From: a virus
Direction: 5' to 3' (one strand)
Length of the DNA: 64,000 nucleotides
IMG/VR virus record: IMGVR_UViG_3300024348_000005
Span: 64,001-128,000 of that record
Position 1 is the first letter of the stretch. The number at the start of each line of letters is the position of its first letter. The notes below the pieces were generated by a model. The model worked only from the letters and a program-made list of their open reading frames with translations, ran no database searches and was not told where the DNA came from. Shown here in pieces: positions 15,527 through 64,000 of the stretch. The position numbers and the translations under genes were made by a program.

Positions 15527-18229
15527 ATGGCTTTACAAAAGATAAATTGGACCCAGATTGATACTGAGGTCGTTCCTTCAGGTACCACAATTAATTTAGG
15601 TGCAATATCAGGACCACTTCGTGCGGTCTACGCGGAAAATCTTTACATATCAGGTCAATCAATAGGTGATTTTGTTGCTGGTGCGGGAACAAATGAATTA
15701 AATCAATTTAGTGCATCGGTTAAAGAAGCACTTGAATTCACAGGTTCTAACTTAACAGTTAAAGGAAATCTATTAGTAAAGGGTACAACAACCGCAATCA
15801 ATTCAACAACAGTTGCTATTGGTGATAATGTTATAGAATTAAATGGTACTTCAGCGGTAAACGGTGGATTACTAATTAAAGACCCAACAAACCCAAATAC
15901 AATTTCAGGGTCGTTACTTTGGGACACAACTTTAGATTATTGGAAAGCGGGTCAATTAGGTAGTGAAGAAAAAATAATATTATTAAGTGAACTTAATAGC
16001 GCGACTTCATCTTTATCCGCATCAATTAATACCCTATCGGGGTCATTATCTTCGTCAATATCAAATATATCTTCGTCATTTTCGGCATCAATTGCCAATT
16101 TACAAGACACTAATATTTGGCAACCAACAGGATCATTCTACGGAACCTCTCAAAATATTAAAATTACAGGTAGTGGTGCACTTCTTAACTCACCAGATGG
16201 TGCGGTTACTGGAAAATATGCATTACAGGTTTCACAATCAATACACGCAGCAAATATTAATGTAGGTATACCAACATCTAACGATTGGAAAACAAGTTTA
16301 GAGGGTTCATATTTTAATAATTTCGATAAAAATACAGACGTATCTGAAATATTAAGATTTGTTGCGGGATTATTATCATCTTCCGCTCCTGATGCGTCAC
16401 CAAACACAAAGGGATATAGTAGTTACACAAAAAATAACGTTAACACCACAACAGGTACGGTAACGGTTGGTAGTATTCCACAAAATTCAACGAACACAAC
16501 AATCACTTACTTACAAGGTAAAGGATTTGCAACAACAGGAACTACAATTTTTAGTGGTATATCACCGATTTATACACAAACAAATTATGGACATACATTC
16601 ACAAGTGTATCATCAGGAACAACAATTGTATCGTCTTCGGTTGATTCACAATTATTTGGATTAGGTACATTAAGTAGTGGTACACCAACCTCACTTAAAG
16701 TTTCAGGTTCATTTACTTTTAAGTTTAAAGATAATAGTTCAAAAACAGACACCTCAACATCAGGTTCACAATCTTTAATTACACAAACGGGTGCAGGAAC
16801 AACAAGCGGAGTATCGTTAGCAAGAATTAATACCGCAAATAATGCGGTAATACCTCCAGCATATCAGGATGGTAAATTTGCAACAGTATTTTCACCATCA
16901 TTATATGGTGCAAGTAGTGATGTTAGTTCAAGTGGATGGTACCACATATCAAGTTCAATTAGTATTGCAAGTGGATCAAGTCCATTTACCACACCAATTG
17001 ATAGTTTTACCGAAGTATTCTACGCACCATTAACAACAATATCAACAAATATTTCTGCACAAACACCTACATTTAGTGGTGTAAGTGTTAATGGAATAAC
17101 TGCGGTGTCTCGTTCATTGAGTGGAGCACCTTATTTAAGTTCGGCAACATACACTATATCAGGTTCAATATTAGGATTGTTTAATCCTTTATATTACGCT
17201 GGTACAGGAATTGCAACAATTACAGATTCGGATTCTTTAGTAACTGAGTCGGGTGGAATATTAACAGTATCGACCGCCGGAGGAACAATACAAACAGCAA
17301 ATGCCGTTTACGATTCAACAGGTGTGACCGTTAGAAGTACGGGAACAGTTCCATATGAAACTGACATTGTAAAAGTTTATACAACATCATCGTTTGCACC
17401 AGGTACATCTGACGAAAATATAAATCAAATAGGTTTAGGTACAACATCATTCTCATTACAAATAAACGGATTAAATAAAGCGGGAACTACAACAACAAAC
17501 ACATCAACAGTTTCATATCATACCGCAGGTAATTTTGGACAACCAAGTGATAGTGGTAGTTTAGCATATTATGGTAGAGTACAAGGAACAGATACGTCAA
17601 CATCGCTAGTTGAATCTTTTACAGGTGAAAACAATCGTTTAGTAGTTGATGATAATATTTTATCATTTACAGGTACTTCTTGGACAACATCATTTGGTTT
17701 ATATAATTTAGGTAATACGGATTTACAAGTTAAACCGGGATTTTTAGTTAAACCTGGTGGAACGTATGGATATTGGTTAACCAATCCAAGTTCTGCAAGT
17801 GATTACAAATACTACATTCGTAAAATTAGTAGTGGTGCTTCATCAAACAAAGTGTCAATGACATTAAATGTCGGACAAGCACTTGTAAATTGGACATCAT
17901 CGACTTCAAATTCAGTTGCGGTAGCACTTCTTTTTGAATCCGCTAAAAGTGGAATTTATACACCATCAAGGTTCTTTGACCCTTCGGATACATTAAGTAA
18001 TGTAATAAATTCTTCAATATCGGCAAATACGGATGGTACAAATCCATTTGGAAGTGCAATTGCTTTGTATGGAAATACTGGTGGTTCTCTATCAAGTACA
18101 ACATATACAATTCCTTTAAGACCAGCAGATGGATTTACAGTAAATGCAACATATGATGAAGTTTATGTGATTGTAAGATATAAAGGGGACCCAACACCAA
18201 TAACGACGATAACAACAACATTTAGTTAA
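15527..18229 (+). CDS. Large Ser/Thr/Gly-rich virion structural protein
   Basis: 900 aa, beta-rich composition; shares the IWxxTGS...ITGS module with downstream fibre genes. Confidence 0.65.
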   Translation: MALQKINWTQIDTEVVPSGTTINLGAISGPLRAVYAENLYISGQSIGDFVAGAGTNELNQFSASVKEALEFTGSNLTVKGNLLVKGTTTAINSTTVAIGDNVIELNGTSAVNGGLLIKDPTNPNTISGSLLWDTTLDYWKAGQLGSEEKIILLSELNSATSSLSASINTLSGSLSSSISNISSSFSASIANLQDTNIWQPTGSFYGTSQNIKITGSGALLNSPDGAVTGKYALQVSQSIHAANINVGIPTSNDWKTSLEGSYFNNFDKNTDVSEILRFVAGLLSSSAPDASPNTKGYSSYTKNNVNTTTGTVTVGSIPQNSTNTTITYLQGKGFATTGTTIFSGISPIYTQTNYGHTFTSVSSGTTIVSSSVDSQLFGLGTLSSGTPTSLKVSGSFTFKFKDNSSKTDTSTSGSQSLITQTGAGTTSGVSLARINTANNAVIPPAYQDGKFATVFSPSLYGASSDVSSSGWYHISSSISIASGSSPFTTPIDSFTEVFYAPLTTISTNISAQTPTFSGVSVNGITAVSRSLSGAPYLSSATYTISGSILGLFNPLYYAGTGIATITDSDSLVTESGGILTVSTAGGTIQTANAVYDSTGVTVRSTGTVPYETDIVKVYTTSSFAPGTSDENINQIGLGTTSFSLQINGLNKAGTTTTNTSTVSYHTAGNFGQPSDSGSLAYYGRVQGTDTSTSLVESFTGENNRLVVDDNILSFTGTSWTTSFGLYNLGNTDLQVKPGFLVKPGGTYGYWLTNPSSASDYKYYIRKISSGASSNKVSMTLNVGQALVNWTSSTSNSVAVALLFESAKSGIYTPSRFFDPSDTLSNVINSSISANTDGTNPFGSAIALYGNTGGSLSSTTYTIPLRPADGFTVNATYDEVYVIVRYKGDPTPITTITTTFS

Positions 18230-18243
18230 TAATTATATAGTAG

Positions 18244-19122
18244 ATGGCAGCAATAGATAGTACTAAAAAATCAGGTAGGTTCCTTCAAAGTAGAAGGTAT
18301 ACACACGATACATTTACCGATGCTCAAGAAGCGTTTACATCGGTATTAGACATCAATGCTAGTGAAATTTACATCGATCAAGATTTAATACCTAATAGTG
18401 GGTTACCATACAATAGTGTTGGTCAAGACGGTTCAATATATTCTAGTAATGGTCAACAAGTAATGAAATATTACTATAGACAAACAATGACTAAGTCTGA
18501 CACAAACAACGAAGTTTGGTTTTTCTTAGTACCAACAGGTTCAACATCGGGAGTTGGGGCAAGTTTAATTGTTGTAAGTCAACAAACAAATTTTATTTCA
18601 CCAAAATATTCAATATCGTCTTTAGCTAACTCAAATACCGAAGATGCAACTCCCGGTTATGGTGTTAAAGTTTTAATAAACGGGGTTCAACAATCAGTTA
18701 ATAACTACGCGTTTGATTATAAAACAGGTGTTTTGCAATTTGCATCAACAGCAGTTGCCCCAACAAGTGGACAAGTTGTAACAATATCCGCTTACCAATA
18801 TGTTGGTAGAACATTATCTTCACAAGTCGGTGGAAGCGGTTCTACGGTTTATGATATTTTTAAACCCACTGGTTCATTTTTTGCAACGACAAACGATTTA
18901 CAAGTCACGGGTTCAATGACAATAAAGGGAGATTTAAGAGTTGAGGGTACAACAACGTTAGTTCAAACTTTAGATCAAAATGCACAATCATTAATCATAT
19001 CGGGAGCGGCAAGTATTGTAAGAAATCAATTTGTTTCTGCATCACTATCAATTCAAAATTTAGGAACGTTTGCGGATAGGTCGATGAATTCAGAAATTGA
19101 TTGTGGAGATGGTTATTTTTAA
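18244..19122 (+). CDS. Virion structural/fibre adaptor protein
   Basis: FDYKTGVLQF, DIFKPTGSFFATTNDLQVTGS module, C-terminal IDCG. Confidence 0.6.
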   Translation: MAAIDSTKKSGRFLQSRRYTHDTFTDAQEAFTSVLDINASEIYIDQDLIPNSGLPYNSVGQDGSIYSSNGQQVMKYYYRQTMTKSDTNNEVWFFLVPTGSTSGVGASLIVVSQQTNFISPKYSISSLANSNTEDATPGYGVKVLINGVQQSVNNYAFDYKTGVLQFASTAVAPTSGQVVTISAYQYVGRTLSSQVGGSGSTVYDIFKPTGSFFATTNDLQVTGSMTIKGDLRVEGTTTLVQTLDQNAQSLIISGAASIVRNQFVSASLSIQNLGTFADRSMNSEIDCGDGYF

Positions 19123-19168
19123 TTCAAAAATAAAGTATTTATATAAATAAAAAGAACAACAAACGCAA

Positions 19169-20950
19169 ATGGCACAAATAATTAAACATAGAAGGGGTTC
19201 GATTGACACGTTAGTATCTGCAACAGCGAAAAAGGGTGAATTAATCATAGCAACAGGATCTGTTGGTAACATGAGTGGTCCTTGGGTATTTGTCGGTGAA
19301 ACCGAAGGTAGTGCCGGAGCATTTAGAGGATTATCAAAAATATATCAAGGTGCTGCGGTACCAAATTTAACGGTGGGTACATGGGGTTCAACACTTAACG
19401 GTACACCATATTATTCATCTAACGATAAGACATTATATATTTTAAGTAATGCTGGTAATACGGATATTGATTTAACGGGTAACATTGAGGGTAACACTAT
19501 TAGTGGATTGACAATTAATAAACTAACTGGTGATTTAAGATTGGCGGGTGATTTGTATATGACAGGTAATACCTATCAGACAGGTTCACATTACTTAACA
19601 GGAGATGTTATTTTATCGGGTAGTATTAATATTGGTGATAACGTAACCGGAGATACCATTAATTTTAATGGTGAAGTTAATTCAAACATCTTACCAACAA
19701 CAGGTGCGACATTTAATTTAGGTTCTTCAGGAAAGACGTGGAATAATATATTCGCCGAAAATGCATATTTAACTAATTTAGAAATTGACAACATAACTTT
19801 AAATAGTTTATCACTTCCAGGTAATTTAACTGTAAGTGGTACAACAACATTATCTGGTTCTGTTTATGTTGAAGATTTAATTGAAAAAAGATTAGTTGTT
19901 GCTGGTGCCGGTGGTTTATTAACAAACTACAGTGGACTAACATTTAATAATGGTAATTTAAATGTTTCAGGAGCACTTGAAGTAACAAACATTCAAGGTA
20001 CAGGTTCACTTTATTTACGACCTGACAAAGCCGACGGAAGATACTTTGAAATTTATAACACCGCAGCAAGTGATGTACACATTAAATCTAGTAATGGATT
20101 AAGTTTCTTTGGTGATGACACGAATTACTTAAAAATTGACGACTCAGCACAAACAGTAACAATTGATAGTACAAACGGAATATTTTTAGATAGTAATACA
20201 AAGGTTAATGGAACATTAATAGTTACTGGTACCACATCATTACAAAATACTTTAACTGTAACAGGTACTACAATAATTCATGGAAATGAAACAGTAAACG
20301 GTATTTTAACTGTAACGGGAAACACTCAATTAGGTGGTAACTTATATGTTTCAGGAACATTAGAAGTTTTAGGATCATCAACAGAGGTACATATACAATC
20401 AAATACGGTTGAAATTAATGACAATATTATTTTATTAAATGCATATTCACCATTTGAAAGATATGCGGGTATAGCATTATATGATTCAGGTTCAACAGGA
20501 GAATCGGGTTCATTCTTGTGGGATTCATTGAACAACTATTTCTTAATGAACAATAACAGTGTAAGTAGTAAAGTTATTGGTACAACAACAAACACATTAG
20601 GTAACGAAAATAGTTTAACCTCAACATATTTTCCAATTGCAACTGGTGACAATACAATAGGAAATAGTTTGTTAAGATATTCAGGAACAACACTTTCATT
20701 TAATACTAACAAGTTTACTGTTGATTCATCAAGTGGTAATGTTTATGTAGATGGTAATGTTAGAGTTAATGGTGCTGGTGGTTCAAATTATACAGGTTAT
20801 ACATCTGAAATTGTATTTAAAAACAGTGATGATGATTTAGGATTTGTTAGTAGTACTGACACACAAACAGTTACAACACAGTTATTGGGATATCAATCTT
20901 CTGATGGTACTTTAGTTTTCTCATCATTAATTGATGGTGGTTCATACTAA
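19169..20950 (+). CDS. Fibre protein with beta-repeat shaft
   Basis: N-terminal MAQIIKHRRG...GEL, repeated LxVTGxT units, C-terminal IDGGSY. Confidence 0.7.
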   Translation: MAQIIKHRRGSIDTLVSATAKKGELIIATGSVGNMSGPWVFVGETEGSAGAFRGLSKIYQGAAVPNLTVGTWGSTLNGTPYYSSNDKTLYILSNAGNTDIDLTGNIEGNTISGLTINKLTGDLRLAGDLYMTGNTYQTGSHYLTGDVILSGSINIGDNVTGDTINFNGEVNSNILPTTGATFNLGSSGKTWNNIFAENAYLTNLEIDNITLNSLSLPGNLTVSGTTTLSGSVYVEDLIEKRLVVAGAGGLLTNYSGLTFNNGNLNVSGALEVTNIQGTGSLYLRPDKADGRYFEIYNTAASDVHIKSSNGLSFFGDDTNYLKIDDSAQTVTIDSTNGIFLDSNTKVNGTLIVTGTTSLQNTLTVTGTTIIHGNETVNGILTVTGNTQLGGNLYVSGTLEVLGSSTEVHIQSNTVEINDNIILLNAYSPFERYAGIALYDSGSTGESGSFLWDSLNNYFLMNNNSVSSKVIGTTTNTLGNENSLTSTYFPIATGDNTIGNSLLRYSGTTLSFNTNKFTVDSSSGNVYVDGNVRVNGAGGSNYTGYTSEIVFKNSDDDLGFVSSTDTQTVTTQLLGYQSSDGTLVFSSLIDGGSY

Positions 20951-20969
20951 TTAATTAAAATTAAAATAT

Positions 20970-20997: not shown

Positions 20998-21041
20998 ATT
21001 AAATTCTATTTATTTAAACTATTTTTTTGTGTATTTATAGA

Positions 21042-21080: not shown

Positions 21081-21103
21081 AATTGAATGAGGGAACCATA
21101 CAT

Positions 21104-23080
21104 ATGGCACAAATAGTCAAACTGCGTAGGAGCGCTGTATCCGGTCAAAAACCAACAAACAGTAATTTACAGCTAGGTGAATTAGCGTTGAATACCGCCG
21201 ATGGTAAGGTATACATGGCAGTGTCAGGTTCGGGAGGACCCTCAATTCAAGAATTATTAGTAACAAACACGGTTAATACAGGTTCAATTTATCTTACAAA
21301 TAATGTAACCGCATCTTTTTTCACAGGTTCATTTATTGGTAATGGTACGGGTTTATATAACGTACCGGCAAGTGGTGTAACTGGATTAAGTCTTTACCAA
21401 ATCGTAAGTGGTTCGGTATCTGCCTCAATATCACCTGATTTAGGATTTCAAATTAATACTAATACTGCAATAACAGGTACATTATCTGTTAGTGGTAATT
21501 TATTTGCAACATCATCACACGCAATTAGTGCATCATATGCCGCGAATGCCATTATTGTTTCTGGACAAACAAAAACTTTAACGGTAAATCCGGCAGCAAC
21601 AACATGGTCATTCCAACATAATTTAGGTTACAAATATCCAGCAATTAATGTTTTTGATGTTAATGATAATGTAGTTGTACCAAAAGAAATAACTGTAGTT
21701 GACAATAATAATTTAGTTGTATATTTCGATACACCACAAATAGGTACTGTAATTGCAACGATTGGTGGTAACGGTTCTTCCGGAACAAGCGGAACATCAG
21801 GTACGAGTGGTTCTTCAGGAACTGCAGGTACGTCAGGTACGTCAGGAACAAGTGGAAGTTCAGGATCATCAGGTTCTAGTGGTAGTTCAGGTACAACCGG
21901 TTCTTCAGGAACCTCAGGTTCATCGGGAAGTAGTGGTAGTACTACCGTAGGTGCTTATAATTCTTTAACAGTATCAAGTCCAAGCACAACATGGTCATTT
22001 CAACATGATTTAGGTGCTCAATATCCTGTATTTCAAATTTATGATACAAATGGTTTTGTAATAATTCCACAACAAATACAAGCCATTGATTTATATAATT
22101 CAACAATAACATTTTCATCACCACAATCAGGTATTGTTGTTGCAACTCTTGGTGAAGGTGGTGGTGGGTCTTCAGGTACTTCAGGCACTAGTGGAACCTC
22201 AGGTTCAAGCGGTAGTAGTGGAACTTCAGGTACGTCAGGAACAAGTGGAAGTAGTGGTACAAGTGGTTCTGCCGGAACTAGTGGTACTTCAGGTAGTTCA
22301 GGGTCAAGTGGAACGTCAGGAACAAGTGGTACATCAGGTTCTAGTGGTTCTTCAGGAACATCTGGTACAAGTGGTAGTGATGGTTCATCGGGTACTAGTG
22401 GTAGTAGTGGAACCTCAGGTTCAAGTGGTAGTAGTGGAACGGCCGGTACATCAGGTTCTTCAGGTTCTAGCGGTAGTAGTGGTACTAGTGGAACATCAGG
22501 GTCTAGTGGTACTAGTGGAACATCAGGGTCTAGTGGTTCGTCAGGAACAAGTGGTAGTAGTGGAACGTCCGGCACATCGGGTTCTTCAGGAACTGCGGGT
22601 ACATCAGGTACATCAGTAACAGTTGGAGGTACGACTAATACGATTGTTAAGTTTGATTCACCAACAACAATTGCTGATTCAAATATAGATGACAACGGTA
22701 GTTTAATTACACTAAACACAAATACAACAATTTCAGGGTCATTATCTGTAACGGGAAGTGTTGGTATAACCAACGGTAGAATATATAATCAATATTCAAA
22801 TGTTGTTTCAGGTACAACAAGTGTTTTTGCAATTCAAACAGGTTCATTTACCTCCGCATTTTTCAATTATACATTATATGATCAAGCAAACGCTAGAGCG
22901 GGTATTATTGTGAGTGCTTGGAATGGTAACATTATAAACTATAATGAAACAACAACTACCGACATTGGAGACACAACGGATGCAACATTTGACATAACAT
23001 TATCAAATGAAGGTCACATCGAATTAAAGGTTATTTCAACCGCTAACTGGTCTTTTAAAACAATGACAACATTTTTATAA
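21104..23080 (+). CDS. Fibre protein with Gly-X-Y (SGT/SGS) repeats
   Basis: N-terminus KLRRSAVSGQKP...GELALNTADGKVY resembles the T4 gp37 N-terminus; two WxFxHxLG modules; ATG at 21104 preferred over TTG at 21083. Confidence 0.75.
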   Translation: MAQIVKLRRSAVSGQKPTNSNLQLGELALNTADGKVYMAVSGSGGPSIQELLVTNTVNTGSIYLTNNVTASFFTGSFIGNGTGLYNVPASGVTGLSLYQIVSGSVSASISPDLGFQINTNTAITGTLSVSGNLFATSSHAISASYAANAIIVSGQTKTLTVNPAATTWSFQHNLGYKYPAINVFDVNDNVVVPKEITVVDNNNLVVYFDTPQIGTVIATIGGNGSSGTSGTSGTSGSSGTAGTSGTSGTSGSSGSSGSSGSSGTTGSSGTSGSSGSSGSTTVGAYNSLTVSSPSTTWSFQHDLGAQYPVFQIYDTNGFVIIPQQIQAIDLYNSTITFSSPQSGIVVATLGEGGGGSSGTSGTSGTSGSSGSSGTSGTSGTSGSSGTSGSAGTSGTSGSSGSSGTSGTSGTSGSSGSSGTSGTSGSDGSSGTSGSSGTSGSSGSSGTAGTSGSSGSSGSSGTSGTSGSSGTSGTSGSSGSSGTSGSSGTSGTSGSSGTAGTSGTSVTVGGTTNTIVKFDSPTTIADSNIDDNGSLITLNTNTTISGSLSVTGSVGITNGRIYNQYSNVVSGTTSVFAIQTGSFTSAFFNYTLYDQANARAGIIVSAWNGNIINYNETTTTDIGDTTDATFDITLSNEGHIELKVISTANWSFKTMTTFL

Positions 23081-28944: not shown

Positions 28945-28972
28945 AAAAAGGGGGAATTTATCCCCCTTTTTT
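28945..28972 (+). terminator. Intrinsic terminator
   Basis: AAAAAGGGGGA-ATTTA-TCCCCCTTTTTT. Confidence 0.85.
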
Positions 28973-32783: not shown

Positions 32784-33032
32784 ATGGAAAACAGAAAATA
32801 TATAATTTTTAATGTCAGTGAATTAGATAAAATTGACTTTAATCAAGTTCAAGAAACATCAGTAGATACAATTAGAAAATCTGTTGATGAAACATTAACG
32901 TTTGTAAAATATGATGGAGATGAAATGCCGTCAAGTGTATCATCTTTAACAACAAAACAAGGACCATACACACAAACGGAAATACTTGAAATAATAAACA
33001 CACCTGAATGGTCTGTAGAGATAACACCTTAA
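32784..33032 (+). CDS. Small fibre-associated protein
   Basis: IDFNQVQETSVDTIRKS...FVKY...EILEIINTPEW; lies between the fibre and LamG genes. Confidence 0.55.
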   Translation: MENRKYIIFNVSELDKIDFNQVQETSVDTIRKSVDETLTFVKYDGDEMPSSVSSLTTKQGPYTQTEILEIINTPEWSVEITP

Positions 33033-33743: not shown

Positions 33744-33753
33744 AAAATAAATT

Positions 33754-53090: not shown

Positions 53091-53722
53091 TTTTTACTTA
53101 TAAAATTTATGTATGTTAATCTTTTAAAATCGTTTTTCACTGAAGTAACTTCATGAGTTACGTTGTTTTGTGTAAAATCTAATATAGTAAAATTTTCGTT
53201 AATTGGGTACACTTCTTCAATGATACCATTATTCTTTATAATCAATTTTCCACCCCCATCATTATATGTTTGTGAATCCGATAGGTAGATTAAAAAAACA
53301 CAAATTCTACCTTCATTAAAACCATCTTTATGTTCATTTATAAAGTCACCATTTTCAAATAGAGTTACATCATCCATATGAACTAAATCACCAAGGTCCC
53401 CATAATTTTCATTTATAAAATTGGTAATACTCTTTCTAAAATAATTTTTTAGGGGTATTAATTTATCACCACTATACTGCCACCATCTTTGAAATGTACT
53501 TAAATTATTATCTCTAACGAATTGTTCCCTCGTACTAATTTCATTTAAACTAATTAACATTTCATATGGTATTGGGTCTTCATAATCAAAACGATACCTA
53601 AATTCATTCTTATCGTTAACTAATTCATTTGTTTTTAAACAATAATCTTTGAATATCGACAGTTCAGAAAATAACTCCACATTTTTACCAACATAATACC
53701 CGTCTTTAAATAAATTATTCAT
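53087..53722 (-). CDS. 2OG-Fe(II) oxygenase, paralog of the fused domain
   Basis: HKD...IYLS...GGKL...HEV...KR. Confidence 0.85.
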   Translation of the reverse strand: MNNLFKDGYYVGKNVELFSELSIFKDYCLKTNELVNDKNEFRYRFDYEDPIPYEMLISLNEISTREQFVRDNNLSTFQRWWQYSGDKLIPLKNYFRKSITNFINENYGDLGDLVHMDDVTLFENGDFINEHKDGFNEGRICVFLIYLSDSQTYNDGGGKLIIKNNGIIEEVYPINENFTILDFTQNNVTHEVTSVKNDFKRLTYINFISKK

Positions 53723-55424: not shown

Positions 55425-55435
55425 ATTAATTTCAT

Positions 55436-56599
55436 TTATATTAAAGATTCAAAATAATTGTAATCAGTTCTATCGTTTATTATGTTTGAAACGATTTCAT
55501 TATTTTTTAAAAACCTTTCTTTATTATTTATGATGAATTTTTTAATTTCATCTCTATTATTATAAATTCTATTTATTTCATCACAAACAAGTGAGAATCT
55601 CTTTTTAAAGTTAGTTTCATTATCATAATCGTGATTAACCACATCCTCAAATAAATCAAACCCATATATTTCTTTTAGATTCTTAACATGAAATGCGGAA
55701 GATAAAAATATAGGTATTTGATAAAAAAAGAACGGTTTAAAGGATTTCTCAGTTATATGTACATCTTCAGTAATGAAATTTGTTTCCGTTGTAATATTAA
55801 GATATGCATTACGAAACGTATCCTCACAAATGAAATCACCAAGATCACCAAATTTAAAGACATGGTCAATTTCATATTTACTTTTCACGTTACCATTTTT
55901 TAAAATAATTTCAATTTCTTCTTTTAATGTTGGAGATAAATTATAATCCACATTTGATTCCGAATCGAACATAAATGACCAGTCGACATCATTGATAATG
56001 TTTGTTTTTTTAAGAAACGCCAATACCGCAAGTCTGTGTGATTTCATTCTTTTATTATGACACATAAATAAAAATTCACGATTTGTAGAAAATTCTATTT
56101 TATGTTTATTTAATAGTTTTGAATAAAAGATTGGTAAATATTTTGTGGACAACACGTTAATGTTACTATTGTATTTTGATTTATAAAAATTTAAAAGAGA
56201 ATTATTATTGATTAAATGTATTTTTGTCCCATCAATATTATGTCTATCTATAAAATCATTTAATTTTATGAAATTTTCTTCGTCAATAGACTCGTGCTCA
56301 CTTAATAAAACAACATTTACATTATTTAATGTTTTTAATGAGACCATTAATAACTCCGTAAATGGAATTGTATTTTCAAAAAAACTAAATGTAGATAATT
56401 TTGAAATAAAATAATAATATTTTTCATTAGGATTATTAAATGCATCAATTAACTTAGATTCATTTATTTCTTTGAAATTAAAATATTTAAAATGTTTTTT
56501 TAAATACAACATTCTTTCCTCATCACTACCTTTAACAAAGTAATAACTCAAATCTATATCATCTAAATTATCCTTAATAATATTTAAAAAATTACCCAT
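55436..56599 (-). CDS. Putative GT-B glycosyltransferase, paralog 3
   Basis: FMCHNKRMKSHR, YLNITTET..HITEKSFKP; ATG at 56599 (MGNFLNII) matches the paralog start. Confidence 0.55.
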   Translation of the reverse strand: MGNFLNIIKDNLDDIDLSYYFVKGSDEERMLYLKKHFKYFNFKEINESKLIDAFNNPNEKYYYFISKLSTFSFFENTIPFTELLMVSLKTLNNVNVVLLSEHESIDEENFIKLNDFIDRHNIDGTKIHLINNNSLLNFYKSKYNSNINVLSTKYLPIFYSKLLNKHKIEFSTNREFLFMCHNKRMKSHRLAVLAFLKKTNIINDVDWSFMFDSESNVDYNLSPTLKEEIEIILKNGNVKSKYEIDHVFKFGDLGDFICEDTFRNAYLNITTETNFITEDVHITEKSFKPFFFYQIPIFLSSAFHVKNLKEIYGFDLFEDVVNHDYDNETNFKKRFSLVCDEINRIYNNRDEIKKFIINNKERFLKNNEIVSNIINDRTDYNYFESLI

Positions 56600-57216
56600 T
56601 TCCCCGTTCCGTAGTGCGGCCACTCTTTTTTATAATCATACCAAATAACATCTGAAGGAACCTCACTTTTAACTTTCCATGTTTCCACTGTTGGAGTGTT
56701 GGTCGATACACCATTATCCTCAACAACAAATTTTATTGGTAAATCAAAATTTTTGGCATACTTGTAGTTTTCCATAAATCCACCAGTTTCAAATGCCATG
56801 TCACCAACAAAACACCAAACAGTTTCATTATTATCCTCTATTTTATTTGCCATAGCAACACCAACAGCAATCGGTATTATAGCACCAACAATTGCAGATG
56901 CATAGAATTTCTCATCTTTATTTACTAATGTAATTGACCTACCGTCTAATATTTCTTGTTCAATCCATTCAGATGGTACACCTTTAAGTAACGCATGGTA
57001 ATGAGATCTCCAAGTTGAAAAAACCCAATCGGGTTTCTTAATGTATTTGAATATTTCAATTAACTCATCTTCATTACCACCACTTAAGTGAATCGGTCCC
57101 CTAACTCTTCCGGATTCCCAATGATCCGCCATTTTTCTTTCAAACTGAATAAGTCCCGCTTTATCCCATAATGGTTTGTTTACCATCGGTAATGAATCTA
57201 TTAAATTTTTTATCAT
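56584..57216 (-). CDS. TPP-dependent E1-alpha-like subunit (short)
   Basis: GPIHLSGGNE, STWRSHYHAL, TPP motif GDMAFETG...VVEDN. Confidence 0.88.
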   Translation of the reverse strand: MIKNLIDSLPMVNKPLWDKAGLIQFERKMADHWESGRVRGPIHLSGGNEDELIEIFKYIKKPDWVFSTWRSHYHALLKGVPSEWIEQEILDGRSITLVNKDEKFYASAIVGAIIPIAVGVAMANKIEDNNETVWCFVGDMAFETGGFMENYKYAKNFDLPIKFVVEDNGVSTNTPTVETWKVKSEVPSDVIWYDYKKEWPHYGTGKWVIF

Positions 57217-57749
57217 CTGTCTCTTTTTTGTAATATTGGATTATTTGTTGGCCATTCCATTTGATATTCGGGGTCATTCCATTTAACAACACCTTGTTCA
57301 TTTGCATCAACATAACCATCTTTATAAAATAGGTTATAATGAAACATACAATCGGTTAATGCGTAATGACCATTGGCAAATCCTGGAGGAACCAATACTT
57401 GATTTCTATCTTTCTCGGTAATCATAAAGGATTCCCACTCACCAAAGGTATCTGATTTCGGTCTCATATCTAATACTATTAAATATATATCACCAACTGC
57501 GGCTTGTACTAATTTCCAAGTCTTATTGTCCCAATGTAACCCTCTCAATACACCTTTGTACGATTTTGAAAACCTACCATGTACTTCGTTTCCTTCACCT
57601 ATTTTTTGCATAACAGGATGTTCACCTGAATGAAAAGTTGTGAATATCTCACCCCTATATTCTCTATAAATTGATGGTGTATATGTTGGTACTTCGTAAC
57701 CAAATTTTTTTGATGGAGTAATTTGAAACTCATTCCATTTATTATTCAT
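57213..57749 (-). CDS. rmlC: dTDP-4-dehydrorhamnose 3,5-epimerase family (cupin)
   Basis: GVLRGLH, KLV, DMRPKSDTFGEW, VPPGFANG, WNDP. Confidence 0.85.
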   Translation of the reverse strand: MNNKWNEFQITPSKKFGYEVPTYTPSIYREYRGEIFTTFHSGEHPVMQKIGEGNEVHGRFSKSYKGVLRGLHWDNKTWKLVQAAVGDIYLIVLDMRPKSDTFGEWESFMITEKDRNQVLVPPGFANGHYALTDCMFHYNLFYKDGYVDANEQGVVKWNDPEYQMEWPTNNPILQKRDR

Positions 57750-57750
57750 A

Positions 57751-58722
57751 TTACATGTTGTTTGCGTATCCTAAAGGAAAACCATTTCTAAATTCCGCAC
57801 CCATTTTTGGTACAATCATTTGATAAGCCATTATTAATTCTTCAATACCCATATCAATATCCCACTTAGGAGACCAACCAGTCGATTCAATCTTTGCATT
57901 TGATACAATATAATCCCTTTTGTCGGGATCTTCGTAATAGTCGTTATATGAGACAGCAAAGTTTTTAACGTGTGATTGAATCTTCTCAAGTAATTCTTGT
58001 TTACTTAAATTAGCAGTACTTAAACCCACGTTAAAAATCTCACCTTTATGTTGTTCATAATTTTCTAACATAAACAAGAATACATTTGCAACGTCTTGAA
58101 TGTGAATGAAGTTTCTTTTAAAATTCTTTTCAAATACCACAATGTATTTGTCAGTAATAGCTTTATAGGTAAAATCATTTACCAATAAGTCCGTTCTCAT
58201 TCTTGGTGAAACACCAAACACAGTTGCCAATCTAAAAATGATGGCATTGGTATTTGATTTTAAGAAATTTTCTGCTGAACATTTTGTTGTGCCGTATATT
58301 GAAATTGGATTTAATGGTGATTCTTCGGTACATTCAGTTTGACCCACACCAATACCATATCCACTATTTGTATTAGGATATAATATTTTTATATTTTTAT
58401 CTTTGGTGAATTTAACTATGTTGAAAATCTGGTTAAAGTTAATTTCCTTAGCTAATTCTGGTTCTGCATCACACGCAGGAAACCCAACAATTGCGGCTAA
58501 TGGAATTATAACGTCAACCTCATTACAAAGTTTTTCCAATAACGATTCGTTTCTAACATCTCCGTGAATAAATTTAAAATTAGGATTTGATGTATAAACT
58601 AATAAAGATGTTTGATTGAATATCAATTTATCCAAAACAACTACTTTGTGTCCGGCATTTAACATTTTTCCGGTAATTACGGAACCAAGATATCCAGCTC
58701 CACCTGTGATTAGTATTTTCAT
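57751..58722 (-). CDS. NAD-dependent sugar epimerase/dehydratase/reductase (extended SDR)
   Basis: TGGAGYLG, intact YGTTK, RLATVFG..PRMR; ATG at 58722. Confidence 0.88.
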   Translation of the reverse strand: MKILITGGAGYLGSVITGKMLNAGHKVVVLDKLIFNQTSLLVYTSNPNFKFIHGDVRNESLLEKLCNEVDVIIPLAAIVGFPACDAEPELAKEINFNQIFNIVKFTKDKNIKILYPNTNSGYGIGVGQTECTEESPLNPISIYGTTKCSAENFLKSNTNAIIFRLATVFGVSPRMRTDLLVNDFTYKAITDKYIVVFEKNFKRNFIHIQDVANVFLFMLENYEQHKGEIFNVGLSTANLSKQELLEKIQSHVKNFAVSYNDYYEDPDKRDYIVSNAKIESTGWSPKWDIDMGIEELIMAYQMIVPKMGAEFRNGFPLGYANNM

Positions 58723-58799: not shown

Positions 58800-60071
58800 A
58801 TGGATAAAATCATTTGCAGTTTAGAGGAATGGGATACTATTTTTGATTATTATAGACCTAACGGATCATCGAAAACGTGGTATATTAAAGAATTGAAAAA
58901 ACTAAGTCAACCACTAATGTGGGGGAAATGGAATCTATATAGTGAAGGTGGTGAGATGTTCGACAAGGGGATGATGATGGGTCAAATTACACCTAAACAT
59001 TCAGACAGGTTAGAATATGTACCATTTGACCAAATACAAGAAGGGAGTCATTTATATATCATAAATGTCTACTCGTATAGTTTTTTTGTTGATAATTTAG
59101 ACATTGGATTTGGTTGTATATCAGAAAAGTACCTAAAAGATATCAAGGAAGGTAGGTCTAAAATTGTGATGTTGTTTCTTTATGAGGGATATTCCGGTTC
59201 TAAAGGTAACTATGATTTAGAGATAATTGAAAAATGGAGGGTTGATGCAGATTTACCTATAAACTCAATTTATTACGTTTCAGGTAATTTATTGTGTCAG
59301 CAAATTGTAGAGGAAAAAAAATTAGGGTATCAGGGACGACCAATACAGTACTTTGAACCTTGGAACAAATATAATGAAAATACAATTATAGATTTTAAAC
59401 CGATTAATGAAAAAAATTTATACTTAACCTATAATAGAAATCCAAGACAACATAGAGTACAGTTAATTTTAAATTTATTAAAACACAACATATTTGATAG
59501 GGGGTTAATTAGTTTAAGTGAATTACTTTATAAAACACCGGCAGATGCGAACGTTGAACACGTTGAATTTTTAAAGAACAACACCCCATTTGTTATCAGT
59601 GAAGGATGTGACTTGTTTTTTAACATGTGTTGTAATATTACTAAAGAAGATTATGAAAAAACCTTTATCTCAATGGTTACCGAAACTTTGGTTGATGAGG
59701 GTACATTGTTTATTTCGGAAAAAATATGGAAACCAATTATGGTCGGTCATCCATTTATTGTTTTTGGTAATTTATGGACTTTAAAATTTCTTAAGTCTAT
59801 GGGTTACAAGACTTTTGATAAATGGATTAATGAGGAATACGATAACGAGCCCGATAGTGGTAAAAGATGTAATATGATTACTGACGAACTGATAAAACTA
59901 TCAACAAAAACTGTGGAGGAATTAAAGTTAATTAGAGATGAGATGAACGAAGTGTGTGACCATAATCAAAAATGGTATAAAAAACTTTATGATGAAAAAT
60001 ATGGTGGAATTGACATAAACGGAGATTTAACTAAGATATTTGAAGAGGTTTGGAATGAATTAAAAAAATGA
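58800..60071 (+). CDS. Putative GT-B glycosyltransferase, paralog 4
   Basis: YLTYNRNPRQHR, ISMVTET..FISEKIWKP, GYKTFD; ATG at 58800. Confidence 0.55.
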   Translation: MDKIICSLEEWDTIFDYYRPNGSSKTWYIKELKKLSQPLMWGKWNLYSEGGEMFDKGMMMGQITPKHSDRLEYVPFDQIQEGSHLYIINVYSYSFFVDNLDIGFGCISEKYLKDIKEGRSKIVMLFLYEGYSGSKGNYDLEIIEKWRVDADLPINSIYYVSGNLLCQQIVEEKKLGYQGRPIQYFEPWNKYNENTIIDFKPINEKNLYLTYNRNPRQHRVQLILNLLKHNIFDRGLISLSELLYKTPADANVEHVEFLKNNTPFVISEGCDLFFNMCCNITKEDYEKTFISMVTETLVDEGTLFISEKIWKPIMVGHPFIVFGNLWTLKFLKSMGYKTFDKWINEEYDNEPDSGKRCNMITDELIKLSTKTVEELKLIRDEMNEVCDHNQKWYKKLYDEKYGGIDINGDLTKIFEEVWNELKK

Positions 60072-61366
60072 TAATGACAAAGAATTTTAATATAGTTTAT
60101 GAAAATTGGAAAGGAGATGAACCCATATCTAATTGGGTGGATATTTTTCCAAAAAGAAATTTAAAAGATCCATATTATTTAATACAACATTATATAAACG
60201 ACACCGAATTTGAAAATAAATTTAATTTGAGGAGGTGTGATTTCGATGATGTGATGAATGCCCCAAATGAGAATTTTTATTATTTCGTAAACTACGGAGT
60301 GGGAGATTTATGTGAGTTATTTGAAAATAACGAATTTGGTAAACCGGTACAACCATTAAATCCGATAAGTGATAAATTAAAAAGTTTTATTAAGGATAAC
60401 CAAAACTTTAATATGGTTTTTTTAACCGAGCATGAACCTGATAATGAAGAGGGGTTTAGAATTTTAAACGATTACATAAAAAATAATGATTTAAACGCAA
60501 AACAATTCTTTGTAATTAACAATAATTCCAAAATTAAGGACTATAATCAAAAATATAACAGTGAGATTAATACATACACTTTAAATTTCATACCTCACTC
60601 ATCAACTAAAGTTTTAGTTAGAATTGGTGGTTGTGAATTTAACACAGAAAGAAAGGGTAAGTTTTTTATGTGTTTTAATAAATCACCCAAATCACATCGT
60701 TACGCATTGTTATGTCTTCTTAAAAAGAATAATATTTTAGAAAATACAAATTGGTCCTTAGTACCGTCGTGGAATTGTAATTTTGACGAGTCTTACCTTC
60801 GTTCTACCTTTTCTAAGAACGAATTGAAAATGATTAAAACCGAGATTGATTATTTTGGTAAAATTGATATCAAAAGAAGCGATTTTGAGGATGACAAGGG
60901 ATGGTTTAATAGGTTCAGTAACATCAACAGGGACTCGTTACCAATATGGCAACAAATACCGGAGCATTTAGAAACCTTTCTTAGTTCATATGTAAACATC
61001 GTAACAGAGTCAATGTTTAAAGATGTAAACAACAACATTCACATATCCGAAAAATCATTTAGACCATTCTATTATTATCAAATCCCTGTTATATTATCAA
61101 CACATGGACATATTAAAACACTAAAGGAAAAGTATGGATTTGATTTTTACGACGATATTGTCAATCATAGTTATGATGATGAACCAGACCAAAAAACAAG
61201 ATTAATAAAATTGGTTGCTGAGGTTGCAAGATTGAATAATAATAAAGAAAAAATAGTAGAATTTTTTAAAAACAATAAAGAAAGATTCGAAAGTAATAAA
61301 CAGAAAGTAATTGAAGTTTTGAATGTTGTAAATCAAGATTACCTTTATTTTGAAAGTCTAATATAA
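60068..61366 (+). CDS. Putative GT-B glycosyltransferase, paralog 5
   Basis: FMCFNKSPKSHR, YVNIVTES..HISEKSFRP. Confidence 0.55.
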   Translation: MIMTKNFNIVYENWKGDEPISNWVDIFPKRNLKDPYYLIQHYINDTEFENKFNLRRCDFDDVMNAPNENFYYFVNYGVGDLCELFENNEFGKPVQPLNPISDKLKSFIKDNQNFNMVFLTEHEPDNEEGFRILNDYIKNNDLNAKQFFVINNNSKIKDYNQKYNSEINTYTLNFIPHSSTKVLVRIGGCEFNTERKGKFFMCFNKSPKSHRYALLCLLKKNNILENTNWSLVPSWNCNFDESYLRSTFSKNELKMIKTEIDYFGKIDIKRSDFEDDKGWFNRFSNINRDSLPIWQQIPEHLETFLSSYVNIVTESMFKDVNNNIHISEKSFRPFYYYQIPVILSTHGHIKTLKEKYGFDFYDDIVNHSYDDEPDQKTRLIKLVAEVARLNNNKEKIVEFFKNNKERFESNKQKVIEVLNVVNQDYLYFESLI

Positions 61367-61932
61367 TGAAAAGGAACATATTAATTTGTGGAGATAGTTT
61401 TGCTGCTGATTGGACAAAAAAATACAACGGAGTCGGTTGGGTTAATATGTTATGTGATAATTTTAATGTTACAAATGTTGCTGAGGCTGGAGTATCGGAG
61501 TATAAGATATACCAACAATTGAGTAAACAAAAAATCACGGATTTTGACAAGGTAATCATTTCACATACAAGTGCATATAGAATACCGGTAGAAGTTCATC
61601 CGATTCACTCTAAAGACATATTACATTATAATTGTGACTTTATTTATTCTGATATCAAGGAACACAAAAACAATCCTGAGGTTAAATGTATTGTCGATTT
61701 ATATGAAAATTATTTTCATGTTGAATATGCAATATTTGTACATGACTTAATATTAAAAGAAATTAAAGGATTATGTCCTAACGCAATAAACATGACATTC
61801 TTTAATTCCTTTAATAAGGATTCAATTCAATTGGAAGATGTATTTTTAGAGAATAGGGGGGATATAAATCACCTAAATGAAGTCGGCAATAAAATAGTAT
61901 ATAATAAAATTTTAAAATTATTAAATGAATAA
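61366..61932 (+). CDS. SGNH-like protein
   Basis: CGDSFA, NVAEAGVS, DINHLNEVGN. Confidence 0.6.
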   Translation: MKRNILICGDSFAADWTKKYNGVGWVNMLCDNFNVTNVAEAGVSEYKIYQQLSKQKITDFDKVIISHTSAYRIPVEVHPIHSKDILHYNCDFIYSDIKEHKNNPEVKCIVDLYENYFHVEYAIFVHDLILKEIKGLCPNAINMTFFNSFNKDSIQLEDVFLENRGDINHLNEVGNKIVYNKILKLLNE

Positions 61933-62641
61933 ACTTTGGACGTTTGGGTGTAGTTTTACCTCAGAGTATAATTTTACCCCTTTTAGGGGTGCGGTAAATC
62001 AAATGATAAACTATAAGGAATGGAGAAACGGTAGTGAACCTAAACTATGGGCAACAATACTTGCGGATAAATTAAATTTAGAAGAAAAAAATTTAGGGTA
62101 TCCGGGTTCCTCGGTTTATAAAATTTTTGACGCATTTTGTAATAATTGTCACTTGATTGAAAGGGGAGATGTGGTTATTGTTGAATGGACAAGATTACAA
62201 AGATTTAGGGTTTGTTTACACGGAAACTTCCCAACAGTGCTACCCGTTCATAATAAAGATACAAATACAATATTAAGTTATAAAACCACGGCTCAAATAC
62301 AGGTGAATAGAGATGAAAGACCTTTTATTGAAGAGGTTTACTCGTTTCAAAATTTTATAGAGGAATTTTGTAACTCATTAGGTTGTGAAATATATTTTTG
62401 GTCGGCCGATGATGAAATTATTAACAAGGAAAGTAATGAATTTAAAAGTAAAAGAAAATATCTATTTCCCGAGGCAAATATTGATATGACACAATATTTG
62501 AGAAGAAAATATGGTGCAGAGACAATACATGAAGAGACGAGTGGTGAGGTCTTAGATCAACAACATTATGGTGAAAAGGGGCATATTGTTATGGGTGAAA
62601 TATTTTATAATGAAATAATTAGATACAGAAATTTACAATAA
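61925..62641 (+). CDS. SGNH-like protein (GCSF type)
   Basis: WTFGCSFT, NLGYPGSS, DQQHYGEKGH. Confidence 0.62.
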   Translation: MNKLWTFGCSFTSEYNFTPFRGAVNQMINYKEWRNGSEPKLWATILADKLNLEEKNLGYPGSSVYKIFDAFCNNCHLIERGDVVIVEWTRLQRFRVCLHGNFPTVLPVHNKDTNTILSYKTTAQIQVNRDERPFIEEVYSFQNFIEEFCNSLGCEIYFWSADDEIINKESNEFKSKRKYLFPEANIDMTQYLRRKYGAETIHEETSGEVLDQQHYGEKGHIVMGEIFYNEIIRYRNLQ

Positions 62642-63327
62642 TGAATACACTTTGGATATTTGGAGATAGTTTTAGTTCAGATTTTGACTATAAAAATCTA
62701 CATGAAAATCATAAAACCTATATGGATATTTTTAATATTGAATACATACCGGTTTGGGCAAGTGTATTAGGAGAAAAATTAGGATATGATGTTAAAAATT
62801 TAGCAAAAGGAGGAAATTCTAATTATCAAATATTTCAAGATTATTGTGATTCTTGTAATTTAATACAACCAAACGATATTGTTATTGTTGGTTGGGGACT
62901 GATTGATAAGTTTAGAATATCTCAAAATAATAAAGTCGTAAACATACATCCTAATAACACCAGAGATTATGAGAACATGTCTAAATCTACGTTAGATGAG
63001 ATGATAAAAAATAGAAGAGAAATTTATAATGGTATCGATATTTGGGCGGGTGAAATTTACGGATGGGAAAGGGCGATTGATACGTTAAGTAAAAACAAAG
63101 GGTACCAAATATATTTTTGGTCAACTGAAGAAGATAGATTAATGAAACAAGAAGATAAAAAAAATTATTTGTGTTCAGAAAGTAAAATATCTTTAATACA
63201 TTATTTGAGGGATTTAGGGTGTTTAAGTATGTCACAAGAAACTAATAATGTTGTTGGAGATTCCCATTTTGGACTACAGGGTCATAATAAACAAGCAGAA
63301 ATTTTTTATAATGAAATTAAAAAATAA
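62641..63327 (+). CDS. SGNH-like protein
   Basis: WIFGDSFS, NLAKGGNSN, DSHFGLQGH. Confidence 0.65.
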   Translation: MNTLWIFGDSFSSDFDYKNLHENHKTYMDIFNIEYIPVWASVLGEKLGYDVKNLAKGGNSNYQIFQDYCDSCNLIQPNDIVIVGWGLIDKFRISQNNKVVNIHPNNTRDYENMSKSTLDEMIKNRREIYNGIDIWAGEIYGWERAIDTLSKNKGYQIYFWSTEEDRLMKQEDKKNYLCSESKISLIHYLRDLGCLSMSQETNNVVGDSHFGLQGHNKQAEIFYNEIKK

Positions 63328-64000
63328 ACTTTGGACATTTGGATGTAGCTTCACCGCAGAGTATGACCCGATAGGTGGAATACACCCACCGTTTGAAAAT
63401 AATTTTGACAGGTATTATAAATTTAGAGGTAATAATTTTCAAGACACATGGACAACCGTACTTGCTAATAAAATAGGATATAATCCCATGAATTGTGCTT
63501 TTGGTGGATCATCAAATTATGGTATACTTAATCAATTCATTGAGGTTTGTGATTTAATTAAAAAAGACGATATTGTTATTTTTGGATGGACACATTTAGG
63601 TAGATTTGTTGCGGTTAATAACGTGAACGATATCTTTAATCAAGTTCTACCCTTTGGTGCAGAATACAATGATTTAGGGTTATCTAAAAAAACAGTTGAA
63701 GAGATACAGGTAAATAGAACAAACCCTTTATGGGGTAAGGAAGTGTATAGTTGGATTTACTTCATTAATAGATATATTAAAAATATTGGAGCGGAATCAT
63801 ATCATTGGACAAGTGATGAAAGAATTTTTAACTATCACACCAAAAATAGAAAGGAAGATGGATTAATCGTGGTTGATGATGAAGAAATTTTAAACAATCC
63901 CCATATTGTGGATAAACACAATTTATTATGGTATCTAACTCATCCGTTACAATATAATGGAAAACAAATGGGTAAGGTTATTGATGAGACCGACGGTCTA
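63311..64000 (+). CDS. SGNH-like protein (GCSF type), 3' truncated by window; absent from ORF track
   Basis: MKLKNKLWTFGCSFT...NCAFGGSSN; frame open to the window end. Confidence 0.65.
   Translation, partial: MKLKNKLWTFGCSFTAEYDPIGGIHPPFENNFDRYYKFRGNNFQDTWTTVLANKIGYNPMNCAFGGSSNYGILNQFIEVCDLIKKDDIVIFGWTHLGRFVAVNNVNDIFNQVLPFGAEYNDLGLSKKTVEEIQVNRTNPLWGKEVYSWIYFINRYIKNIGAESYHWTSDERIFNYHTKNRKEDGLIVVDDEEILNNPHIVDKHNLLWYLTHPLQYNGKQMGKVIDETDGL

Follow-up and report, generated by a model that had tools for sequence, protein, structure and literature searches.

The window considered here, a stretch of 64,000 nucleotides (positions 64,001 to 128,000) of the IMG/VR virus record IMGVR_UViG_3300024348_000005 with a G+C content of ~30%, contains a fibre module of six plus-strand genes (15527 to 32780), followed by an island of ~32 genes for soluble proteins that include glycosyltransferases, radical S-adenosylmethionine (SAM) enzymes, and enzymes of sugar-nucleotide synthesis. 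Genes of the island were assigned using Pfam and NCBIfam profiles. The window is best explained as the tail-fibre and "host-recognition" region of a phage, and the last three genes of its fibre module bear Gly-X-Y triplets. Fibre 1 (21083..23080, plus strand, with the ATG at 21104 as the likely true start) contains 71 triplets in 2 tracts, fibre 2 (23153..28924, plus strand; 1923 aa) contains 400 triplets in 5 tracts parted by small beta-rich domains, and fibre 3 (29037..32780, plus strand; 1247 aa) contains 226 triplets in 4 tracts. Altogether, 697 strict in-register triplets (2091 residues) were counted, and the longest tract comprised 138 triplets. Position X is occupied by Ser or Thr and position Y by Ser (~86%) or Ala, and the tracts carry 1285 Ser/Thr hydroxyls, no Pro, and at most ~1% charged residues. 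An original prediction made from the letters of this DNA had described three fibres with ~2000 residues of "(S/A)-G-(S/T)" repeats and >1000 Ser/Thr hydroxyls, which is the same repeat read in another register and agrees with these counts.

Glycine occupies every third residue over long tracts, and the Pfam Collagen family (PF01391) matched fibres 1, 2, and 3 with E values of 1.6e-26, 5.8e-155, and 7e-86, respectively (92, 504, and 282 bits, with a cut-off of 27.2). These strong matches indicate that the tracts are collagen-like and are not Ser-Gly sites of the glycosaminoglycan type. In bacterial collagen-like proteins, Pro makes up about 19-31% of position X and Thr is found chiefly at Y (PMC8968730), in comparison with which the composition of the tracts is extreme; the features that stabilise collagen, namely Pro or hydroxyproline or many charged residues at X and Y, are lacking in them. 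The fibres are also the Ser/Thr-richest proteins in view (37-49% of residues). Most collagen tracts of related phages likewise have 72-94% Ser/Thr at X and Y and are free of Pro, the exceptions being the Ala/Gln-rich tracts of L027 and a Pro/Gln/Thr type in L056-L061. The best explanation of the sequences is that the three fibre proteins are trimeric, with predicted shafts of Pro-free, charge-free collagen-like Gly-(S/T)-(S/A) tracts.

All open reading frames (ORFs) of the window were compared by tblastn with 39 loci bearing GT7 glycosyltransferase genes, which revealed a conserved core of six genes and a variable periphery. The order of the core is methyltransferase, GT-A-like glycosyltransferase, GT7, GT7, radical SAM, and radical SAM, all on the plus strand. 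Core gene 1 (35217..35966) encodes a class I SAM methyltransferase (Methyltransf_24, E 2.1e-12) that was kept in ~35 loci, and core gene 2 (35959..36807) encodes a GT-A-like protein (Glyco_tranf_2_4, with a DxD motif at residue 92) that was kept in ~36 loci and scored at the borderline of its family (27.0 bits vs a cut-off of 27.5). Core genes 3 (37003..38430) and 4 (38427..39860), whose products are ~30% identical, encode beta-1,4-galactosyltransferase-like GT7 enzymes, with GT7N/GT7C Pfam scores of 73.5/63.3 and 55.6/63.0 bits. Their motifs include DVD and WGWGFEDTD, with invariant H73-D74-x-D76 and W135/W137/G138/E140/D141/D143. A profile of 20 GT7 homologues retrieved B4GalT7 and B4GalT1 from the PDB at E ~1e-45 (33-35% identity over ~157 residues), the enzymes being equally near to both, and an AlphaFold2 (AF2) model of the gene 3 product with a mean confidence (pLDDT) of 90.8 matched B4GalT enzymes in Foldseek at E 9e-13 with a root-mean-square deviation of ~2 A. 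Domains, DxD motif, WGxEDDD-type motif, and fold all agree with family GT7, and the assignment is solid. However, the catalytic domain is not contiguous and has no type II membrane anchor or other transmembrane (TM) segment; according to Pfam, AF2, and Foldseek, a LamG/pentraxin-like jelly roll of ~240 residues (~165-400) is inserted in it. The full GT7 plus LamG architecture was found on phage contigs only, and bacteria have the short catalytic part only.

Core genes 5 (39857..41950) and 6 (42707..44164; 485 aa) encode radical SAM enzymes of the N-twitch family (NF033640), with 317 and 304 bits against a curated cut-off of 170 bits. Their CX3CX2C motifs (at residues 358 and 136, respectively) read CNFKCAYC and CNFACTYC and are accompanied by five upstream Cys. 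The product of core gene 5 has an extra N-terminal domain of ~240 aa, and a free-standing copy of this domain is encoded by the next gene (41928..42671, plus strand; 29% identity, E 3e-30). Searches of PDB sequences with the GT-A-like protein, the methyltransferase, and the 697-aa radical SAM enzyme yielded nothing usable. Upstream of the core lie two LamG/ConA-like paralogues of 235 and 242 aa (starts at 33036 and 33754, within 33036..34482, plus strand; Laminin_G_3 E 1.6e-25 and 2e-17), which are 39% identical to one another. A single LamG module common to GT7, radical SAM, and free proteins was considered and rejected, since the GT7 insert matched the 41928 protein or the LamG proteins at E ~0.16-0.17 only and clear homology was confined to the radical SAM N-terminal domain and the 41928 protein. 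The gene between the LamG pair and the core (34507..35238, plus strand) encodes a 243-aa protein of virus-only clusters, also found in L001-L003 and G015, that matched nothing in Pfam or NCBIfam and may be GT-A-like (GT8/TOD1), a lead taken from the nearest named ESM Atlas clusters.

Together with the 17 ORFs that follow it, fibre 3 makes up a single compact plus-strand unit with gaps of ≤36 bp, because two small ORFs occupy the apparent gaps, one of 82 aa between fibre 3 and the LamG genes (32784..33032) and one of 68 aa ahead of the first GT7 gene (36804..37010; both plus strand). Terminator-like hairpins were found only before fibre 3 (a GC hairpin with a T run between fibres 2 and 3, 28945..28971, plus strand) and just after 46801 (46835..46862, plus strand), where one closes the plus-strand block. 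The island is therefore tied to the fibre genes physically and probably also transcriptionally. The motif RTATTTATR precedes nine ORFs of the window at a distance of 19-65 nt, and five of these ORFs are fibre-module genes (motif at plus-strand positions 1288, 6391, 12904, 14805, 15499, 19135, 21031, 23109, and 28993), including distances of 28 nt before 15527, 34 nt before 19169, and 44 nt (from 28993) before fibre 3. Nine of its 10 occurrences are on the plus strand; its number is not enriched (11 expected), and only the placement upstream of genes is notable. It was retained before the fibre genes of the related genomes G015 and G008, and in G008 it also occupies gaps before the methyltransferase and GT7 genes. 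This sequence pattern makes RTATTTATR a candidate late or middle promoter element of the lineage. A sigma-70 promoter scan of the window returned a count at chance level and was discarded.

The first three genes of the fibre module, all on the plus strand, precede the three collagen-like ones. The first (15527..18229) encodes a 900-aa protein with 30% Ser+Thr that had no match in Pfam or PHROG and is kept at 55-88% in many IMG/VR jumbo-phage contigs; the other two (18244..20950) encode proteins of 292 and 593 aa, known from their translations and syntenic in G015, the latter with an N-terminus of the tail-fibre type (RRG...GEL). Further upstream, a 457-aa protein with four N-terminal TM-like segments (4248-5621) and a thioredoxin-like protein of 101 aa with a WCGP motif (14870-15175) were observed.

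The variable periphery begins on the plus strand with a GT-B-fold paralogue (44164..45447), an SGNH-like protein (45447..46382), and a 139-aa protein (46382..46801) that is the last of the block and was kept in L001-3, L007, and L023. The minus strand then encodes an E1-beta-like half (Transket_pyr) of a split thiamine pyrophosphate (TPP) enzyme (46798..47346) and three tandem SGNH-like paralogues recognised by motif blocks (47343..49851). A further minus-strand group (49829..53722), identified with Pfam, NCBIfam, and HxD motifs, comprises a 2-oxoglutarate (2OG)-Fe(II) oxygenase (49829-), a GDP-fucose-synthase-like short-chain dehydrogenase/reductase (SDR; 50461-), an SDR-2OG fusion with the 2OG domain C-terminal (51435-), and another 2OG oxygenase (53087-). 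These are followed, on the same strand, by GT-B-fold paralogues 2 and 3 (53715- and 55436-, within 53715..56623) and by the E1-alpha-like TPP half (E1_dh, 56584-), an RmlC-like 3,5-epimerase (57213-), and a GalE/RmlB-like SDR (57751-, all within 56584..58722). The RmlC-like protein scored above the Pfam cut-off and below the NCBIfam equivalog cut-off. On the plus strand again are GT-B-fold paralogues 4 and 5 (58800..61366; listed as 58758 and 60068, the listed TTG start at 58758 probably being too early) and four SGNH-like paralogues with the same motif blocks (61366..64000), the last of which is cut by the window end. From the RmlC-like protein, the GalE/RmlB-like and fucose-synthase-like SDRs, the split E1 TPP enzyme, and the 2OG oxygenases, a modified 6-deoxyhexose nucleotide was inferred as the product of the pathway, and by analogy with known pathways such as yersiniose-type branching it is perhaps two-carbon-branched. 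Neither a nucleotidyltransferase nor a certain 4,6-dehydratase was identified in the island.

The five GT-B-like proteins are paralogues of each other. They had no sequence-family match in Pfam, and a profile of the paralogues found nothing usable in the PDB. A predicted model of one paralogue (AF2 pLDDT 72, pTM 0.79) has two Rossmann-like domains that matched solved GT-B enzymes (Foldseek E ~1e-4; VIA Z 10-12.4 over 270-305 residues), and its fold is thus GT-B. The model matched T4 beta-glucosyltransferase, GtfC/Gtf3, TarM, alpha-1,3-fucosyltransferases, and others equally, and since these enzymes are directed at DNA, teichoic acid, lipopolysaccharide (LPS), or protein, the fold is uninformative on the acceptor. 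In the eight SGNH-like proteins, block I (GDS/GCS), the Gly of block II, and the His of block V were conserved, whereas the Asn of block III was not clearly recognised; the one Pfam match (Lipase_GDSL, in the 45447 protein) had an E value of 0.005 and scored below the cut-off, and the best PDB profile match was a rhamnogalacturonan acetylesterase at E 1.1, so that an SGNH assignment is weakly suggested by the motifs. The island proteins are without TM-like segments, apart from one hydrophobic stretch in each of two enzyme folds known to be soluble. The observation made in the original prediction is confirmed: about 30 glycan genes after the fibres (RmlC-like, SDRs, a TPP pair, a methyltransferase, two GT7, two radical SAM, and three 2OG domains among them), five GT-B-like proteins, no evident TM segments, and a phage source were all recovered. 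Its two GT-A enzymes are reduced to the borderline 35959 protein and the ESM Atlas lead at 34507, and its eight SGNH proteins retain the motif blocks with weak family support (E 0.005 in Pfam, ~1 in the PDB).

The window is phage DNA and encodes, besides the fibres, a ClpP-type prohead protease (564-1268), a phage sigma factor (3136-3945), and a DNA methyltransferase (12009-12899). Among GenBank phages, no nucleotide match to positions 1-15000 and no protein match to the GT7 enzymes were found, and the 900-aa protein had a trivial match only. In IMG/VR, on the other hand, related contigs (170-325 kb) numbered in the dozens. All five relatives with a completeness of 93-100% contain the gene of a T4-type Gp23 capsid protein, which identifies the lineage as T4-like jumbo myophages; the phage of the window is an uncultured T4-like jumbo myophage of a lake, and the genome size of the lineage is about 250-320 kb. 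Membership in the "moraphages", every genome of which contains heat-shock genes (DnaK/DnaJ; PMC12619734), was rejected, as HSP70 (PF00012) was found in none of these five relatives. Full-length GT7 homologues also occurred in "bacterial" assemblies, namely contigs of metagenome-assembled genomes (MAGs) of Flavobacteriaceae, Flavobacteriales, and Pelagibacterales. Gp23 was also present in the bins of two of these three MAGs (the two of Flavobacteria type), which indicates phage DNA binned together with bacteria. The contigs with the phage GT7 core (L085-L088) are VHCC01000006.1, CBFHJJ010000001.1, NZWA01000006.1, and NZWA01000002.1; one is a 248-kb phage genome, and one MAG has at least five Gp23 copies. 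The host probably belongs to the Flavobacteriales, for which MAG binning gives a weak hint.

Whole-record searches covered 28 records, five of them ≥90% complete, and the GT7 core was found in 23 of the 28 and in all five of the latter. Identity of the core among phages is only about 35-55%. The order of 900-aa protein, fibres, methyltransferase, GT-A, GT7, GT7, and radical SAM was retained in G015 and G008. In G015, the 900-aa protein is 88% identical to that of the window and the gene order is the same; its fibres are collagen-free but Ser/Thr-rich (25-35% S+T), and behind its GT7 pair the sugar pathway is replaced by six radical SAM paralogues in tandem (L040/L081/L082; composite 42984-50637), which points to rapid diversification of the radical SAM family within the island. 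A large fibre-like ORF on the same strand lies ≤6 kb upstream of the core in 18 of the 23 informative loci, in which sufficient upstream sequence was available; this count is inflated by near-duplicates. A C-terminal motif resembling a coiled coil (...LIEAIKEL...) closes many of these ORFs and is taken as a putative tailspike-type chaperone tail. A ThyA-family gene was found in four of the five near-complete relatives; the ORFs are unusually long (377-411 aa), with full-profile matches of ~300 bits (G001:C1:210613-211776, G008:C1:62463-63575, and G016:C1:212242-213264), and may encode either thymidylate synthases or dNMP hydroxymethylases.

Since the DNA is that of a phage, the enzymes are soluble, and the island is tied to fibre genes, glycosylation of the phage's own fibres by phage-encoded cytoplasmic enzymes is a reasonable leading hypothesis, to which a probability of roughly 45% is given. 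The conservation of the core across distant phages, while the periphery varies, also fits a conserved phage-borne acceptor. In such a system, the soluble enzymes would act late in infection in the cytoplasm, where O-linked glycans would be assembled and tailored on Ser/Thr of the fibre proteins; the collagen-like tracts would be one acceptor where present and not the sole one. The periphery would supply a modified, possibly branched 6-deoxyhexose nucleotide, the five GT-B paralogues would extend the glycan, and the SGNH-like proteins would edit its acyl groups. A triple helix without Pro would otherwise be weak, and the glycans may give it stability and hydration; they may also shield the fibres or tune their binding. 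A bolder version is put forward more tentatively still, according to which a widespread T4-like jumbo lineage possesses, among its conserved core functions, a self-contained cytoplasmic O-glycosylation system (lectin-armed GT7, N-twitch radical SAM glycan editors, and a rare branched 6-deoxy sugar pathway) that densely coats the phage's own tail fibres; in phages like that of the window, sugars would take the place of hydroxyproline as the triple-helix stabiliser of a Pro-free "glyco-collagen".

Several observations weigh against fibre self-glycosylation. Collagen repeats were found in only 14 of the 28 records and in two of the five that are ≥90% complete, and set against the presence of the core in all five, this indicates that the repeats are not the defining acceptor. 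Two complete genomes, G008 (288,673 bp with terminal repeats) and G010, contain the core and have a collagen repeat nowhere, and G008 also has SDR, RmlC, E1, and GT-B genes; the island is therefore a lineage trait independent of the repeats. The core and much of the sugar pathway thus occur in repeat-free complete relatives, which is the outcome named beforehand in the original prediction as refuting its repeat-specific link between fibres and cluster, and the expected co-occurrence of the two failed. In one locus (L027), the collagen tracts that adjoin the island are Ala/Gln-rich with 35% Ser/Thr, and in five of the 23 informative loci (L008-L011 and L034) no fibre gene lies upstream of the core. 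No island enzyme is a member of a family for which O-glycosylation of proteins has been demonstrated. The glycosaminoglycan or proteoglycan analogy of the original prediction is likewise not supported, with collagen-like repeats, GT7 enzymes equally near to B4GalT1 and B4GalT7, and no linker partners (Pfam searches of the island ORFs revealed no GT14 XylT, GT31, or GT43); the proposed system does not resemble glycosaminoglycan synthesis. What survives of the phage-built glycosylated fibres first proposed is the phage DNA, the soluble enzymes, and the tie to fibre genes.

The main competitor, which is considered less likely, is remodelling of the host surface. In this case, unusual sugars would be added to lipid-linked LPS, capsule, or S-layer glycans via initiating, flipping, and ligating enzymes of the host, for superinfection exclusion or to prevent re-adsorption of progeny to debris. 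No modification of the fibres would take place, and their adjacency would only reflect a shared hypervariable "host-recognition" island. Modification of host O-chains or cell walls, or DNA glucosylation, is the published reading, made without experiments, of similar islands in T4-like pelagimyophages and cyanomyophages (PMC7029224, PMC12801897), and the relatives of the window are likewise T4-like. The genes for sugar nucleotides belong to the O-antigen type (RmlC-like, SDRs, and a TPP branch enzyme), and the core does not depend on the collagen repeats. Glycosyltransferases for undecaprenyl-linked glycans are also soluble, so that the absence of TM proteins is compatible with a host-envelope target. 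However, the phage contributes no membrane component, and no initiating transferase (Bac_transf/WbaP-type or WecA-type) was found in the five relatives with a completeness of 93-100%. Furthermore, the core architecture is phage-specific and kept across distant phages, looking neither host-like nor recently acquired, the island is packed with fibre 3 without a terminator between them, and the host-surface reading has no experimental support in any of these phages.

Bacterial relatives of the radical SAM enzymes bear on the same question. N-twitch radical SAM proteins above the cut-off were found in 15 of 301 sampled Bacteroidia genomes, often as arrays. Arrays of about six paralogues were observed at L153/L154 (G159:C1:1528000-1562000) and L155/L156 (G093:C1:346000-385800). 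The neighbours of the G159 array, the only one scanned with Pfam, encode a carbamoyltransferase, a PhyH dioxygenase, a methyltransferase, a UbiA-type membrane protein, AsnB, a DXD glycosyltransferase, and a GDSL protein, and the array is an uncharacterised type of glycan-tailoring cluster. Such gene neighbourhoods argue that N-twitch radical SAM enzymes tailor glycans, although in a membrane-linked setting, which speaks for the host surface as the target. We know of no chemistry established for this radical SAM family. For the product of 42707-44164, at least 7993 environmental homologues were counted at E ≤1e-10, the top 120 of which are all at least 78% identical, and the number of homologues indicates that the lineage, or at least the gene, is very abundant in public metagenomes. 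A homologue with 39.5% identity over 474 aa was also observed in the cultured 344-kb Ralstonia phage RsoM2USA (L144, MG752970.1 202336-233715), where an SDR epimerase/dehydratase lies beside the tail sheath gene, downstream of a 2540-aa protein (loci 14968-16389 and 7627-8604; all annotated as hypothetical). This phage is a possible laboratory model for the family.

A further alternative, in which capsid, decoration, or baseplate proteins are glycosylated instead of the fibres, or the product is a free or secreted glycoconjugate, is improbable. The acceptors in mycobacteriophages are capsid and tail-tube subunits, as cited in PMC12619734, LamG modules could target any glycoprotein, and the five loci without an adjacent fibre gene would be accounted for. 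These points are opposed by the fibre adjacency in the other 18 loci and by the fibres being by far the richest Ser/Thr substrates in view. DNA hypermodification, in which the transferases would attach sugars to hydroxymethylated bases in the phage's DNA, is very improbable: phage glycosyltransferases commonly act on DNA according to the reviews as cited, and T4 beta-glucosyltransferase was the top VIA match of the GT-B model (Z 12.4, tied with many), but the ThyA-family gene that might supply a link is separated from the island by 45-70 kb and is missing in G010, where the core is kept, so that this link is not supported, and lectin-like inserts, a 6-deoxyhexose/branched-sugar pathway, eight SGNH-like proteins, and placement in the fibre module suit a glycan polymer better.

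Aquatic myophages that are abundant often contain islands in which fibre, glycosyltransferase, and radical SAM genes are combined, and these islands are routinely labelled as host-LPS "auxiliary metabolic genes". If fibre self-glycosylation is true, the islands so annotated would consist of virion-maturation genes. To our knowledge, phage virion glycosylation has so far been shown for a few mycobacteriophage capsid and tail proteins only, and with fibres as the glycan target it would also include a system that is far larger and richer in its chemistry. Sugars made by the phage would then be among the determinants of host range, and the Ser/Thr-only collagen tracts would represent a new, sugar-dependent kind of triple helix.

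Precedents for the glycosylation of virions or collagen exist in mycobacteriophages, BclA, and Mimivirus. BclA is an exosporium protein that is found in Bacillus with a rhamnose operon and in C. difficile with its glycosyltransferase, and its glycans are thought to aid hydration and stability. As in the system proposed here, enzymes with genes close by add O-linked glycans to Thr-rich Gly-X-Y filaments inside the cytoplasm or mother cell, with 6-deoxyhexose chemistry; in contrast, the triplets of BclA are of the GPT type (Pro at X and Thr at Y), whereas those of the window have Ser/Thr at X, Ser at Y, and no Pro, and the enzyme families differ. Both BclA, a collagen-like protein, and the collagen of Mimivirus are glycosylated (PMC8968730). 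Giant viruses (Mimivirus fibrils and collagen, and the chlorovirus capsid) share with the window a virus-encoded, host-independent cytoplasmic machinery that places rare bacterial-type sugars on surface fibres, but their hosts are eukaryotic, their glycans are on hydroxylysine (L230) or capsid, and their gene families are unrelated save for generic SDR and RmlC types. The animal proteoglycan linker pathway (XylT, B4GALT7, B3GALT6, and GlcAT-I) is related in that the phage GT7 enzymes are true homologues of B4GalT7/B4GalT1, although they have a LamG insert and no membrane anchor, and the collagen-like tracts are without the acidic context of glycosaminoglycan sites.

Among phages, virion proteins of mycobacteriophages are O-glycosylated by phage glycosyltransferases encoded beside structural genes (Freeman 2023, as cited in PMC12619734), and glycosyltransferase genes have the same placement in the window. 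As described in that source, soluble phage glycosyltransferases there modify Ser/Thr-rich regions of virion proteins encoded by the same phage. Unlike the window, however, the mycobacteriophage system as cited comprises one to a few glycosyltransferases, it modifies capsid and tail-tube subunits at their C-terminal tails, and it has no sugar-nucleotide pathway, radical SAM enzyme, or collagen repeat; furthermore, it was shown by experiment, whereas that of the window is proposed from the genes. The host recognition cluster of T4-like pelagimyophages and cyanomyophages (PMC7029224; S-SCSM2R/P-SSM2, PMC12801897) is also a large variable island in the structural region of a T4-like phage, in which tail-fibre genes, some with collagen repeats and ConA-like domains, are found among glycosyltransferases, sugar-nucleotide enzymes, and radical SAM cassettes. 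The window, with its variable island of fibre, glycosyltransferase, and radical SAM genes in a T4-like phage, fits this type. It differs from the cluster in the genome size of its lineage (about 250-320 kb), in a conserved six-gene core with GT7+LamG and N-twitch radical SAM enzymes, and in fibres with ~2000 residues of Ser/Thr-only triplets.

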